Shown: piece by piece, positions 50,877 through 55,076 of the stretch
Layout of the letters: each line of letters opens with the position of its first letter
Numbering within the stretch: the stretch's first letter is position 1
Sequence record: MW584153.1
From: Mycobacterium phage prophi79-1
Strand: one strand, 5' to 3'
Length of the DNA: 64,000 nt
Position numbers and translations under genes: made by a program
Notes under the pieces: generated by a model
Told to the model about the DNA's origin: nothing
The model's database searches: none
The model's input: only the letters and a program-made list of their open reading frames with translations

Positions 50877-51545
50877 ATGGCCTCTGAACCATCGGTGCTT
50901 GTTGGCACCACGACCAGGGTCAGCCCTGCTGAACTCTCGATCTATCACCGCAATGCCCGCGTCGGGGACGTGGATGCCGTCATGGGATCACTCAAGGCAA
51001 ACGGGCAGTTCAAGCCCTTGTGCGTCAACATCGGGACGAAGACCGGCCGTCCTAATGAAGTACTCGCCGGCAACCACACGCTCAAGGCATTCCGAAACCT
51101 GGCTGAGCAGAACCCTTTTGACGATCAGTGGAGCAAAATCGCTGTTCATTGGGTCGACGTAGACGACGAGATGGCTACCCGCATCGTGCTGGTGGACAAC
51201 CGCAGCTTCGAGGACGGTGGATTCGACGTCGCCGAGCTGGTGGAGCTGCTCAACGAGGTCGGCACGACCGGCACGGGGTACAGCGACGCCGATCTGGATG
51301 AGCTGGAGGCGGCGATTAACCGGATCGTCGGGCCTGGGGACTGCGGTGACGACGCACCCGCTCTCCCAGGTGATGACACTGACGACAAGGCGATTCGCTA
51401 CACCATCGTGTTCGACGACGAGGATCAGCAGGACTCATGGTTCGGCTTCATCAAGCTGCTCAAGGACCAGTACCCGGACACCGGCATGACGGTGTCCGAG
51501 CGTATCACCGAGCACCTCAAGGACACAGCAGGGGAGCGGGTCTGA
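50877..51545 (+). CDS. ParB-like nuclease domain protein (paralog 1)
   Basis: SIYHRNARVGDVDAVMGSLKANGQFKPL...AGNHTLKAFRNL...HWVDVDD. Start chosen at MASEPS. Confidence 0.7.
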   Translation: MASEPSVLVGTTTRVSPAELSIYHRNARVGDVDAVMGSLKANGQFKPLCVNIGTKTGRPNEVLAGNHTLKAFRNLAEQNPFDDQWSKIAVHWVDVDDEMATRIVLVDNRSFEDGGFDVAELVELLNEVGTTGTGYSDADLDELEAAINRIVGPGDCGDDAPALPGDDTDDKAIRYTIVFDDEDQQDSWFGFIKLLKDQYPDTGMTVSERITEHLKDTAGERV

Positions 51546-52231
51546 TGCCGCGGCGTACTTCAACTAAGCCGGCCGCAGGTTCAACTGTCGCGGTCGCACC
51601 GTCATCTCTTCGCAACTACCACCGCAACCCTCGCAAGGGCAACGTGGATTCGGTGGTCGCAAGCCTCAAGGCCCATGGACAGTACCGCCCGATCACCGCC
51701 AACATCGGCACTCACACAGGCCGGCCAAACGAGGTGTTGGCCGGTAACCACACGCTCAAGGCATTCCGCAAGCTCGCAGGCGATGAACCCGACGATGCCC
51801 GCTGGAACGAGATCCTGGTCCACTGGGTCGATGTCGACGACGATCAGGCCAAACGAATCGTCCTGGCCGACAACCGGACCAGCGAGAAGGGCACGTACGA
51901 CTCCAAGGCGCTGGCCGATCTGCTGTCCGACGTCAGCCATGATCTGACCGGCCTCGGGTACACGGCGGAGGACTTGGATGCGATCAGCGCGACGAGTCTC
52001 GACACGGACGTCGAGGTTGATCTCGGCCTTGACGCTGATGACGAACCTCCCGCCGAGTCTGCCGGCCGCGGCAACCCGGTCATCTCCTACGACATCGTGT
52101 TCGACTCCGCCGACCAGAAGGTCGTGTGGACTGAATTCGTGAACTGGCTTCGCCGCACCCTCCCGGATCTGACGCCGGGAGAACGGATCACCCACTACAT
52201 CGAGGAGTCGATCACCCATGGCACCTACTGA
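51545..52231 (+). CDS. ParB-like nuclease domain protein (paralog 2, tandem duplicate)
   Basis: Same motif set (NYHRNPRKGNVDSVVASLKAHGQYRP...AGNHTLKAFRKL). TGATG overlap. Confidence 0.7.
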   Translation: MPRRTSTKPAAGSTVAVAPSSLRNYHRNPRKGNVDSVVASLKAHGQYRPITANIGTHTGRPNEVLAGNHTLKAFRKLAGDEPDDARWNEILVHWVDVDDDQAKRIVLADNRTSEKGTYDSKALADLLSDVSHDLTGLGYTAEDLDAISATSLDTDVEVDLGLDADDEPPAESAGRGNPVISYDIVFDSADQKVVWTEFVNWLRRTLPDLTPGERITHYIEESITHGTY

Positions 52232-52481
52232 CGACGCACCTCGGCACCCGAGTGTCCAGCACACTCTGGAGCTGCTCAGTTCTAGCGATGAGCTGCTCGC
52301 CAAATATCTAGCGGGCGTTCCGTTTAGCGGCCAAGAACAGGTCGTTAGATCGGTGAATTACACCGCGCAGGAGGTAGCCCAGCACCTCAGTGACGGCCCC
52401 GAACTAGCGGCTGGTCTGCGAAAGCTGCTGGAGGCGCGCGACTGCTTCGAGCGTCAGGCACAGATCGACGCGGATGGCTAG
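52218..52481 (+). CDS. hypothetical protein
   Basis: 87 aa, overlaps on both sides. Confidence 0.5.
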   Translation: MAPTDDAPRHPSVQHTLELLSSSDELLAKYLAGVPFSGQEQVVRSVNYTAQEVAQHLSDGPELAAGLRKLLEARDCFERQAQIDADG

Positions 52482-53568
52482 GGTCAAGCACGTCCGGGAG
52501 TTCATCGACGCCAACGTGCTCGACGAGGCCCGGCGTCGAATGCACCATATCTACGACGTATTCGACACCGTGCTGGTCGCGTTCTCCGGCGGCAAGGACT
52601 CGCTGGTGTGCGTGCACCTGGCGCGCGAGGTCGCGCTGGAGCGCGGCGACGAGCGGCCGATCAAGGTGGTGTTCCGCGACGAGGAACTGATACCGGACTC
52701 GGTGGTGCAGTTCGTCGACGAGTACCGTCGGCTCGATTGGGTCGATCTGCGCTGGTACTGCATGCCTTTGGCGTCGACCAAGTACATCCTGGGCACCAGC
52801 ACGCAATACATCCAGTGGGACCCGAACCGCGAACACATCCGGCCGGAACCTGATTGGGCGATCACGCCGGCATCCCTCGGGCTGCCGAATGATCGCGTAT
52901 ACGACCAGTACTCGATGGATACGCTCGCGGCCAAGGGGGAGAAGGGCAAGGTCGCCATGGTGACCGGCGTCCGCGCCGCAGAGTCGCTGATGCGGTTCCG
53001 GGCGCTGACGGCCAAGCTCACCGAGAACTACATCAACACCACCACAGATCCCCGAGTATTCACGGTCAAGCCGATCTTCGATTGGCAAGAGGACGACGTC
53101 TTTCGCTACTTCTACGACTACGACATCCGTTACTGCCCAACGTACGACGCGCAGCTCTGGGCAAAGGAGCCACTGAGGGTTTCGACGCCGCTGCATGCCG
53201 AGCGCGCGAAGCGGTTCGACAATATCCGTGCCTACGAACCGATGTTCTATGACCAGGTGATCGCGCTGTTCCCCGAAATGGCGGTACAGGAGCGGTATTA
53301 CAGCGAGCTGGACCGCGCCGCCATCATCCAGCGGTACGGCGCATCACTGGACGGCGTGCAGGCGTGGATTGACGACACCATCGAAGACGAGCAGCAGAAG
53401 GCCAAGGCGCTCAAGGAACTGCGCTCGATTCGGATCAAACAGGTCAAGACCCCCGAGGCTTACCCGAGCGACTACGTGCTCACTCAGTTCATGGCCGGGG
53501 CATACAAACGGTCCATCACCGCGCTGTCGAAAGAACAGCAAGCAGCACGACGGAAGGCGAAGGTATGA
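52474..53568 (+). CDS. PAPS-reductase/DndC-like PP-loop ATP pyrophosphatase family protein
   Basis: PP-loop VAFSGGKDS. 364 aa. Confidence 0.75.
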   Translation: MARVKHVREFIDANVLDEARRRMHHIYDVFDTVLVAFSGGKDSLVCVHLAREVALERGDERPIKVVFRDEELIPDSVVQFVDEYRRLDWVDLRWYCMPLASTKYILGTSTQYIQWDPNREHIRPEPDWAITPASLGLPNDRVYDQYSMDTLAAKGEKGKVAMVTGVRAAESLMRFRALTAKLTENYINTTTDPRVFTVKPIFDWQEDDVFRYFYDYDIRYCPTYDAQLWAKEPLRVSTPLHAERAKRFDNIRAYEPMFYDQVIALFPEMAVQERYYSELDRAAIIQRYGASLDGVQAWIDDTIEDEQQKAKALKELRSIRIKQVKTPEAYPSDYVLTQFMAGAYKRSITALSKEQQAARRKAKV

Positions 53569-53774: not shown

Positions 53775-54358
53775 CGTTCCAAGACATCGGCGTCGACCAT
53801 TTGACCGGTGGCACTAACGCGTCAGGACTTCCGCTGCTGCCTGTCTCGGAGGGAGACCCCATTGACCACATCCGATGGGTGCCCGCCGACACCCTCGACG
53901 CAAACACCTGGAACCCCAACCGAGTGCACCTTGCAGAGCTGCGGCTGCTTGAGCGGAGCCTGCTCTCTACCGGGTGGCTGCAGCCCCTTCTCGTCAATCC
54001 CGAGCGGCTCATTATCGATGGATTCCACCGGTGGCGTCTGTCTCAAGACTCAGCACCGGTGCGCAAGCGTTGGCGAGGACGGGTGCCGGTGGCCGTCCTG
54101 CACGTAGACCGGCCCACCGCGATGCTGATGACCATTCGTATCAACCGGGCCAAGGGAACTCACGTCGCCGTCGAGATGAGCGCCATTGTGCGTGAGTTGA
54201 TCGAGGAGCACGGAATCGACCGCGCCACGATCGCGGCAGAGATCGGCGGCACCAAAGACGAGGTGGACCTGCTCGCGCAGGAAGGCGTCTTCGCTGCCAA
54301 GAACATCAAGAACCACGCCTACTCGAATGCGTGGTATCCGAAGGCTGAGAACACATGA
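53771..54358 (+). CDS. ParB/Srx-like domain protein (third copy)
   Basis: GGGAGGG SD. DGFHRWRLS and ParB-like N-domain pattern. Confidence 0.6.
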   Translation: MTFQDIGVDHLTGGTNASGLPLLPVSEGDPIDHIRWVPADTLDANTWNPNRVHLAELRLLERSLLSTGWLQPLLVNPERLIIDGFHRWRLSQDSAPVRKRWRGRVPVAVLHVDRPTAMLMTIRINRAKGTHVAVEMSAIVRELIEEHGIDRATIAAEIGGTKDEVDLLAQEGVFAAKNIKNHAYSNAWYPKAENT

Positions 54359-54474
54359 CGTGGCTTCTCGCTCCGATCTGCTGGCTACGGGGGCACAATC
54401 GGCGGTCAGTCGGATGGAGTCTTGCTCCGTTTGCGCCTGGCTACGTTTGTGAACGCTGCGGGCGGCTCTGGTGA
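54355..54474 (+). CDS. small zinc-ribbon-like protein (39 aa; C..H...CxxC)
   Basis: ATGA and GTGA overlaps at both ends, GC3 about 68%. Not in the track (<60 aa). Confidence 0.35.
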   Translation: MTWLLAPICWLRGHNRRSVGWSLAPFAPGYVCERCGRLW

Positions 54475-55076
54475 GCGACAACAGGTTCAACTCGACGGAG
54501 TACCTGGACGCGTGGAAAGCCACTGGCAAGTATCCGGCGATACACGACGGCATTTTCCGGCTGATTACTTCCGGGGTCACCCCCGACGTTGGCGTGGTGA
54601 TGGATCTGGGCAGCTCGACGGGCCTGCTCACCCGGCGTCTTTGGGATAGCGGCTACAAGGTGTTCGGCATCGAGTCCAGCAGGGCAGCCGTGGCCGCCGG
54701 GCGCGAGGCCGCTACCTACACGAGGGGAGAGCTGCCTGCCGATGGCCCCGAGGTGTATCGGCATCAGCTGTTGCCGGTGGAGATTCGCGGCGACTTCGCG
54801 ATCTCAGTGGACATGTACGGTGTCAAGGTGGTCGTCGCCCGCCGCGTGCTTCCCGAGCTGGACGATTACGGCGTGACGCCCGCGATCCTGTCTAGTGTGC
54901 TGGTGGATGGCGGCGTCGAGCACCTGTTCGTGGAAGGCCGGGCGCCGCGCAAGCACGCCACGCACCGCCTGCCGACGCTGGAGCAGGAGATCGACGCGCT
55001 CGGAGATGACTGGACGCCGAAGACGTTCGACGGACCGCACCGCGTGCATCTGGTCAGAGCGGATCACCCTTCTTAA
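54471..55076 (+). CDS. class I SAM-dependent methyltransferase
   Basis: Motif I VVMDLGSSTGLL, post-I YKVFGIE. 201 aa. Confidence 0.65.
   Translation: MSDNRFNSTEYLDAWKATGKYPAIHDGIFRLITSGVTPDVGVVMDLGSSTGLLTRRLWDSGYKVFGIESSRAAVAAGREAATYTRGELPADGPEVYRHQLLPVEIRGDFAISVDMYGVKVVVARRVLPELDDYGVTPAILSSVLVDGGVEHLFVEGRAPRKHATHRLPTLEQEIDALGDDWTPKTFDGPHRVHLVRADHPS

Follow-up and report, generated by a model that had tools for sequence, protein, structure and literature searches.

The window analysed here, a stretch of 64,000 nucleotides (nt) of Mycobacterium phage prophi79-1 (MW584153.1), contains between positions 50877 and 55076 a module of eight plus-strand open reading frames (ORFs) with overlapping stop and start codons; this module and its candidate role in DNA modification are the subject of this report. 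The first two genes encode the ParB-fold proteins ParB1 (50877–51545, 222 amino acids (aa)) and ParB2 (51545–52231, 228 aa), two paralogs of a kind that we call ParB-A. They are followed by g87 (52218–52481, 87 aa), by a gene for a PP-loop protein of the phosphoadenosine phosphosulfate (PAPS)-reductase fold (52474–53568, 364 aa), by g69 (53565–53774, 69 aa), and by ParB3 (53771–54358, 195 aa as called in GenBank), a ParB-fold protein of a second, IbrB-like kind (ParB-B). The last two genes are g39 (54355–54474, 39 aa, with a C...H...CxxC pattern) and a small class I S-adenosylmethionine (SAM) methyltransferase (MTase, 54471–55076, 201 aa). The module matches PHROG families 723 (both ParB1, E 1e-63, and ParB2), 2302, 2159 (ParB3, E 8e-83), and 11826 (MTase, E 2e-77), with E values from 1e-63 to 1e-133; g87 belongs to phrog_5120, and g69 has no family match.

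By gene content and gene order, the module is one instance of a conserved and widespread kind of phage cassette, the IbrA/IbrB type. With a profile of the PP-loop protein, 80 IMG/VR loci were retrieved, and their ORFs were classified by clustering and profile hidden Markov models. A ParB-B (IbrB-like) gene adjoins the PP-loop gene in 85/85 related loci, which bears out the proposal, made in a first-pass annotation of the window, that the genes form one conserved functional unit. The window's own, close subfamily (PP-loop protein at least 35% identical, about 350–375 aa) is represented by 30 loci with complete flanks. ParB-B is present in all 30, ParB-A in 29, and a gene for an HNH-like zinc-finger protein in 22. 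In the window, the HNH-like gene lies beyond the MTase gene on the minus strand (55224–55685, 153 aa); it had been taken for a terminase-side gene outside the module, and co-occurrence makes it a cassette component that is inverted in this lineage. The small MTase is found at 11 and a GNAT acetyltransferase (37–45 bits on Pfam Acetyltransf_1) at 12 of the 30 loci, and the two never occur together (Fisher p = 6e-4). De-replication at 80% identity leaves 19 GNAT and 13 MTase lineages, with the HNH-like gene in 28 of these 32. Three relatives whose PP-loop proteins are 70–76% identical to that of the window keep the tandem ParB-A pair and have the GNAT gene at the exact position of the window's MTase; a Nocardia prophage combines the MTase with a single ParB-A gene. 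In a set of 50,697 sequenced phages, all 19 carriers of an MTase homolog have it beside PAPS-reductase or ParB genes, inside the cassette, and all six carriers of an HNH-like homolog bear the cassette. In a more distant branch (PP-loop protein 27–35% identical, 400–430 aa), the architecture is that of IbrA, PAPS_reduct followed by DUF3440, again flanked by ParB; here, a cupin is found in 12/22 loci.

The cassette ranges over phages of Actinobacteria, Bacilli, and Rhizobium. Cluster B3 mycobacteriophages have the order ParB – x – x – PAPS reductase-like – ParB3 homolog – large terminase (TerL), with no small terminase (TerS) annotated. Arthrobacter phage Salgado has ParB – PAPS reductase – ParB – methyltransferase – TerS – TerL, with a two-ParB-domain protein upstream, and phages of Bacillus subtilis and Bacillus cereus have ParB – PAPS reductase – methyltransferase – (HNH-like) – ParB. 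Seven loci (L053, L059, L060, L063, L065, L066, and L073), mostly of the distant IbrA/DUF3440 type, carry in addition a divergent pair of Amidoligase_2 and gamma-glutamyl cyclotransferase (AIG2-like) genes about 1.7–2.5 kb downstream of the PP-loop gene. This pair is possibly a further linked function.

The eight ORFs of the module were confirmed on the plus strand as first annotated, and the motifs then quoted, AGNHTLKAFR, HWVDVDD, RIVLxDNR, VAFSGGKDS, DGFHRWRLS, and VVMDLGSSTGLL, are all present. Translational coupling had been described as ATGA or GTGA overlaps at almost all junctions. ATGA overlaps are found at the starts of g69, ParB3, and g39 and a GTGA overlap at the start of MTase, but ParB1 and ParB2 are joined by TGATG (1-nt overlap), and g87 shares 14 nt with ParB2 and 8 nt with the PP-loop gene. 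For ParB3, the gene and its motif stand; the 199-aa start at 53759 differs from the GenBank call, in which the 195-aa protein starts at 53771, 203 bp downstream of the PP-loop stop at 53568. The GenBank calls used for comparison are those of assembly GCA_017175095.1 (4.78-Mb contig); the PP-loop protein encoded there, ascribed to prophi79-1, is 100% identical to that of the window.

Coding constraint was assessed from substitutions by codon position against two relatives with PP-loop proteins about 95% identical. ParB1 (4/0/17 at the first, second, and third positions), ParB2, the PP-loop gene, ParB3, g39, and MTase show a third-position bias. In g39, the counts are 1/0/8, with eight of nine substitutions at the third position against each relative, and codon by codon the changes in both relatives are synonymous at 9 of 10 variable sites. 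Because of this pattern, we take g39 to be a real gene, in agreement with its initial listing, and rule out a spurious ORF; it is missing from the assembly gene calls and is found in near relatives only. g69 is weakly constrained (9/9/14) and confined to close relatives, and its importance is doubtful. g87 is absent from a relative with a 95% identical PP-loop protein (L009) and is thus not a core component.

Over 213 aa, ParB1 and ParB2 share 48% identity (E 1e-65), in line with their description as tandem paralogs. ParB-A proteins consist of an N-terminal domain with the ParB/Srx nucleoside triphosphate (NTP)-binding fold and a conserved C-terminal domain, with no helix–turn–helix (HTH). The family profile matches the NTP-binding domain only of Noc/ParB (E 5e-13) and has further contacts with sulfiredoxin and with two serine kinases, SbnI and SerK. 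The ParB-A domain also matches the ParB domains of ParB–DNA-methyltransferase fusions (phrog_498, E 8e-26; PADLOC MTase_II). ParB2 on its own gave no match in a PDB sequence search. ParB1 and ParB2 have GNHT (AGNHTLKA) in place of the GERR box and have thereby lost the box arginines; Bacillus and Rhizobium homologs have GHQR or GHGR, with one arginine kept. At L004 226–1422 (Arthrobacter phage Salgado gp2) and L062 6192–7786, there is one protein with two ParB-A-like domains or three consecutive ParB-A genes. ParB-A multiplication has therefore been repeated. The three ParB copies of the window had been regarded as unusual; relatives repeatedly have two to four ParB-fold domains in a cassette.

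ParB3 has no similarity to ParB1 or ParB2 detectable by BLASTP and shares their fold by profile. It contains a ParB NTP-binding domain and an HTH region, with the highly conserved motifs NPN, IIDGFHRW, TIRINRAKGTH, and YSxAWYP. DGFHR occupies the GERR box (DGFHRWR, a partial match) and IRINRAKG the ENLQR box. The ParB-B profile matches ParB/Noc structures (7o0n, 6t1f, and 7nfu) over residues 23–145 with E 1e-6, and ParB3 aligns with Myxococcus and Caulobacter ParB and with Noc through both the NTP-binding domain and the HTH. Several sources name the protein IbrB or 'immunoglobulin-binding regulator'. A partition ParB of the ParABS type was considered and rejected: the NTP-binding fold is there, but the arginines of GERRxRA are not. 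There is no ParA-like protein among the module genes and no repeated palindromic site beyond chance in 49500–56500; in the same interval, a search for repeats and parS-like sites returned only the ParB1/ParB2 duplication and short matches at chance level.

The PP-loop protein matches PF01507 (PAPS_reduct) with 56.7 bits against a cut-off of 22.5. A PAPS-reductase-fold N-terminal domain (approximately residues 1–230) is followed by a helical C-terminal domain, and the AlphaFold2 (AF2) model has a predicted local distance difference test (pLDDT) score of 89.9. The model has the Rossmann-like PP-loop fold, as had been foreseen; the closest folds of the PP-loop domain are flavin mononucleotide (FMN) adenylyltransferase and the ATP sulfurylase CysD, with PAPS reductases also among the nearest. 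The SGGKDS loop is intact in the window protein and invariant in the family, and D69, E71, R167, E170, S171, R174, D203, W204, and D208 are conserved with it in both subfamilies, a set that fits an ATP pyrophosphatase or an adenylyltransferase. R235, P256, and Y275, at the start of the C-terminal domain, are likewise conserved in both. No cysteine is conserved family-wide; C221, at 94% in the close subfamily, falls to 0% in the distant one. DUF3440 was not detected in the window protein and was detected in the relatives at 27–35% identity; the window protein is a member of a sister subfamily of IbrA. The family comprises 323 clusters (50% identity) at E ≤ 1e-30 and 931 at E ≤ 1e-10. Two representatives (P0280 and P0367) have intein-like insertions at conserved sites, one after a conserved WYCxP site and the other directly before the cysteine that corresponds to C221. 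The only long proteins in a set of 150 family representatives are those with inteins, and no domain fusion provided a Rosetta-stone link.

The named enzymes of this fold that were compared do not account for the protein. DndC, CysH, CysD, LarE, and QueC models score far below their cut-offs; PADLOC and NCBIfam scans gave no defence-system or equivalog membership; and a PDB sequence search gave only marginal matches to CysD and CysH. A QueC-like enzyme was rejected on a PADLOC match of 15 bits only. Database labels read 'phosphoadenosine phosphosulfate reductase', and a true CysH PAPS reductase serving sulfur assimilation would agree with them. We find this barely credible: the protein scores 22.4 bits against 254.2 for TIGR02057 and 21.2 against 165.1 for TIGR00434, lacks the C-terminal ECGLH-like motif with its catalytic cysteine, has an intact ATP-type SGGKDS loop, and is always paired with ParB-fold genes.

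The sulfur-transfer analogy with DndC and SspD, drawn in the first-pass annotation, has more to recommend it but is not supported. A phosphorothioate writer of the Dnd/Ssp kind, by which the phage would evade DndFGH-type restriction in M. abscessus, would have the PP-loop protein as DndC/SspD, the HNH-like protein as an SspB-like nickase, the ParB proteins as DndB/SspC, and sulfur supplied by the host IscS. The pairing of a ParB fold with a PAPS-reductase fold is common to DndB/DndC, and the protein has weak local matches to DndC and BrxP models. PAPS-reductase-like genes occur in M. abscessus prophages, and phosphorothioation is prevalent in this host (Dedrick et al.); a phage PAPS-domain protein counters Dnd, and IscS can replace DndA. 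The match to DndC is, however, 27.2 bits over about 60 residues against a TIGR03183 cut-off of 290.4 (28 bits with the PADLOC DndC model). DndC is an Fe–S (iron–sulfur) protein with a characteristic cysteine dyad; the conserved Fe–S cysteine set, including this dyad, is absent, and the one well-conserved cysteine, C221, is restricted to the close subfamily. Searches of the module proteins against Pfam, NCBIfam, and PADLOC found no DndD-type ATPase, DndE, or cysteine desulfurase, and no DndD/SspC-type ATPase is encoded in the module. Such a writer would have no role for a methyltransferase, GNAT, or cupin, and the cassette is also present in phages of Mycobacterium smegmatis, Arthrobacter, Bacillus, and Rhizobium. 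Among the rival explanations, this one is the most specific; because the DndC-defining features examined are not found and the tailoring enzymes have no place, we rate it as quite unlikely.

The MTase is a class I enzyme by its fold (AF2 pLDDT 90.9; Foldseek probability 1.00 to many SAM methyltransferases) and by the presence of the glycine-rich loop of motif I (DLGSSTGLL) and of GIE, with the acidic residue that follows beta-2. PxIH, DLGxxxGLL, ARRxxPE, and EGR are invariant. The earlier assignment as a SAM methyltransferase is thus upheld as to fold, and a DNA-methyltransferase role is not: no N6A, N4C, or C5 family matches, and ARRxxPE stands at motif IV, with no DPPY-type or PCQ motif. In Pfam, only generic Methyltransf_25, 23, 11, and 12 models match, all below cut-off. 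The HNH-like protein has the invariant pattern CxxC...HxEDY...CxxCHxxxH (C42, C45, H55, C69, C72, H73, and H77). phrog_2340, labelled 'endonuclease', matches 13/16 members; matches to the IscB HNH domain and McrA are weak (E 0.05–0.7), there is no conserved asparagine, and no Pfam HNH model matches. In related loci, the gene often lies between the PP-loop gene and ParB-B.

The structural neighbours of the MTase in Foldseek are small-molecule C- and O-methyltransferases (MppJ, ChlM, KijD1, SgvM, and UbiG). Together with FMN adenylyltransferase and CysD as nearest folds of the PP-loop domain, they would agree with a small-molecule or nucleotide pathway acting away from DNA, in host takeover or anti-defence, in which an adenylyltransferase is combined with ParB/Srx-fold kinases resembling SerK, SbnI, and sulfiredoxin and with tailoring. 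The contacts of the ParB-A profile with these three proteins point the same way, and ParB folds bind ATP, GTP, or CTP. The ParB-B HTH, aligned with that of true ParB, and an HNH-like nucleic-acid fold in the cassette speak against it, as does the nearness of ParB-A to the ParB domains of DNA methyltransferase fusions, and we regard such a pathway as highly improbable.

The cassette usually lies between replication genes and the terminase. It is directly upstream of TerS/TerL in at least 20/30 close and at least 11/19 distant loci, with TerL no more than 5.5 kb downstream in most. Packaging or late gene regulation would also fit such a constant position. As a packaging accessory, the ParB-fold proteins would recognise the packaging start site, for or with the small terminase, and the HNH-like protein would aid TerL cleavage as in HK97-type phages. 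The HNH-like gene is indeed beside TerL in the window, and here and in the cluster B3 phages, the latter without an annotated small terminase, the cassette is directly upstream of TerL. Yet Salgado has a separate annotated TerS after the cassette, on which ground we reject replacement of the small terminase by the ParB proteins; in many environmental loci, a small HTH gene separates ParB-B from TerL; and in Rhizobium phage L338C the annotation shows no terminase within 5 kb of the cassette. The HNH-like gene often being inside the cassette is a further objection, and packaging has no need for a PP-loop enzyme plus a methyl- or acetyltransferase. We consider a packaging role very unlikely.

A regulatory device that leaves no covalent mark on DNA would switch on the adjacent late (packaging and structural) operon, with the PP-loop enzyme exerting control by nucleotide turnover or protein modification. 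The names given to ParB-B argue for it, as do the SEED subsystem label 'coactivators of prophage gene expression', the retention of the HTH in ParB-B, and the position upstream of the terminase. KorB, cited as a CTPase clamp by which a regulator is kept on DNA (PMC13229309), argues the same way. According to the title of Sandt (2002), the IbrAB island activates prophage eib genes, and this is the sole reported IbrAB phenotype. A regulator would leave the dedicated, lineage-swapped methyltransferase, GNAT, or cupin and the HNH-like protein unexplained. L338C, again, has no annotated terminase nearby, and around the module no operator-like or parS-like repeat was conspicuous. Regulation is, in our judgement, unlikely.

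The explanation that we prefer, at about an even balance of confidence, is that the cassette carries out a DNA-directed covalent modification, with adenylation by the PP-loop enzyme, substitution, and then tailoring. Judged by family profiles and motifs, the cassette is not a DndC, a CysH, a canonical DNA methyltransferase, or a partition system. The ParB-B HTH, the likeness of ParB-A to ParB–DNA-methyltransferase fusions, the HNH-like partner, and the genomic position, one in which phages keep DNA methylases, suggest that the pathway acts on DNA. MTase, GNAT, and cupin are dedicated and mutually exclusive, and they resemble interchangeable tailoring steps in a single pathway. Swapping of this kind is typical of modification chemistry and is hard to reconcile with a pure regulator or packaging factor. 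Of the first interpretation of the module as a DNA-modification system, DNA as the target is thus favoured by context and precedents, and the specific sulfur chemistry is not.

The modification would be covalent and post-replicative and would be made on phage DNA just before packaging. ParB-B, with its NTP-binding fold and HTH, would bind DNA, and the HTH-less ParB-A pair would license or position the catalytic enzyme, as the ParB-like activators of phage thymine dioxygenases do. The HNH-like protein may open access to the DNA through a nick or distortion. The PP-loop enzyme would then spend ATP to adenylate an oxygen of the DNA (a base carbonyl or a phosphate), and a nucleophile would displace AMP. 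Finally, a lineage-specific tailoring enzyme would complete the adduct: the small MTase here, GNAT in the closest relatives that lie outside the group of the prophage, and the cupin in the IbrA/DUF3440 branch. The phage would be expected to gain an escape from restriction by its host; Dnd systems are common in M. abscessus.

Several observations weigh against a covalent DNA mark. The module encodes no sulfur or amine donor enzyme, and the family has no universally conserved cysteine. In the actinophage clade, ParB-A has lost its NTP-binding arginines through the GERR-to-GNHT change. The neighbours of the MTase act on small molecules, the place upstream of the terminase has the other explanations given above, and the reported IbrAB phenotype is one of gene activation. 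The tailoring genes could also be unrelated accessory genes that share an insertion hot spot. More tentatively, and with clearly less confidence than in DNA modification as such, we suggest that the cassettes represent an uncharacterised widespread family of phage DNA-modification pathways, in which two kinds of ParB and the HNH-like protein license PP-loop adenylation, followed by lineage-dependent methylation, acetylation, or oxidation. Such a family might yield several new DNA modifications and might explain the IbrAB phenotype.

The window begins with the tape measure gene (31–4977), followed by tail genes and a long leftward replication operon that extends to the module. The last gene of this operon ends at 50732 (GenBank call), which leaves a divergent intergenic region of 144 bp (50733..50876) before ParB1. 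This region presumably holds the module promoter; a promoter and terminator scan gave, within it, a sole consensus promoter match, on the minus strand (50812 to 50784), and was uninformative for the plus strand. Inside the leftward operon, on the minus strand, is a gene for a 740-aa protein with a PF23275 (TPR_23) domain (44749–46971), and about 44914–47282 is approximately 78% identical to WXG-100 motif or WXG-100 family protein genes of other M. abscessus prophages. The stretch is probably a polymorphic-toxin-type cassette within the operon. Between the MTase and HNH-like genes and on the strand of the latter, an assembly-called 54-aa ORF (55054–55218, minus strand) encodes two hydrophobic stretches and resembles a small membrane protein. 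TerL (55751–57472) comes after the HNH-like gene; directly downstream of TerL is a plus-strand gene for a 102-aa protein with a Transglycosylas domain (PF06737, Rpf-like; about 57510–57818), and the portal gene is next in the structural order. Structural genes occupy 59366–62755, and a minus-strand tyrosine integrase gene (PF00589, 62933–63961) stands directly after the portal gene and a 492-aa head gene. The window is a prophage integrated in M. abscessus, and the attachment/integrase region, the prophage junction, appears to interrupt the order of the virion structural genes. The module had been placed near the genome ends; this was not established, the window being an integrated prophage. 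Deposited sequences of the related cluster B3 mycobacteriophages start at the ParB gene. The closest homologs of ParB3 and MTase are proteins named for Mycobacteroides abscessus.

The gene set is already catalogued, with PHROG families of its own, SEA-PHAGES annotations, and passing mentions in several papers, and the copy in the window is the same as that of a prophage already deposited. Full-text searches of an incomplete literature collection found no description of the architecture of five components, of the strict linkage of the MTase and the HNH-like protein to the cassette, or of the MTase/GNAT/cupin alternation. The labels 'PAPS reductase' and 'ParB-like nuclease' are attached to such genes in hundreds of phage genomes, where the genes are frequently assigned to auxiliary sulfur metabolism or to partition. 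They make up a fixed cassette together with dedicated partners and with tailoring enzymes that vary by lineage, and the current labels do not fit them. If the cassette does write a mark on DNA, it would add a new route to the enzymology of phage DNA modification, would matter for the host range of phages used in therapy against M. abscessus, and would supply a mechanism for IbrAB. The cassette is carried by easily grown phages (cluster B3 mycobacteriophages and Arthrobacter Laroyevirus phages), so the question is directly testable.

The known systems share individual parts with the cassette. DndB/DndC, as well as SspD and BrxP of BREX type 4, combine a ParB fold with a PAPS-reductase-fold ATP pyrophosphatase in a DNA-modification setting; the module differs from Dnd/Ssp in having no Fe–S cysteine set, DndA, DndD, or DndE and in having tailoring enzymes without a Dnd/Ssp counterpart. 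In a vibriophage, a PAPS-domain::Dam fusion and one adjacent gene conferred Dnd resistance when transferred (Piel et al. 2022; 10.1101/2021.05.05.442762). There too, a phage PAPS-reductase-domain protein is functionally tied to a methyltransferase, but the PAPS domain is fused to the Dam adenine methylase and ParB and HNH partners are not reported, whereas the MTase of the window is a small, free-standing protein unlike Dam. To act on double-stranded DNA, a post-replicative phage thymine dioxygenase requires a ParB-like phage protein that lacks a DNA-binding domain (5mYOX/ParB; PNAS 2026, PMC13229309). This activator has the architecture of ParB1 and ParB2, an NTP-binding domain and a C-terminal domain with no DNA-binding domain. 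Its catalytic partner is a TET/JBP dioxygenase, a domain found in no protein of the module, where a PP-loop enzyme and a second, HTH-bearing ParB are present instead. DpdB, a ParB-like ATPase, drives the insertion of preQ0 into DNA; DpdA/DpdB thus also has a ParB-like protein in a DNA-modification system, and it differs in its TGT-like transglycosylase and preQ0 pathway genes, neither of which is in the module. In phages, fusions of the ParB fold to N6_N4 and Methyltransf_23 methyltransferases are frequent and tie this fold to methyl transfer. As compared to the phage and plasmid fusions with DNA methyltransferases, the domains in the window are in separate genes, the MTase has no DNA-methyltransferase motifs, and the PP-loop enzyme is a constant partner. 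The closest likeness in gene arrangement is to IbrA/IbrB, in which a PAPS-reductase-fold PP-loop protein is encoded beside a ParB-fold protein as in the window, and relatives at 27–35% identity combine PAPS_reduct and DUF3440 with the same adjacent ParB gene. The window protein comes from a shorter sister subfamily; IbrAB is known genetically only, and to its pair of genes the window cassette adds the ParB-A genes, the HNH-like gene, and a methyltransferase or GNAT.

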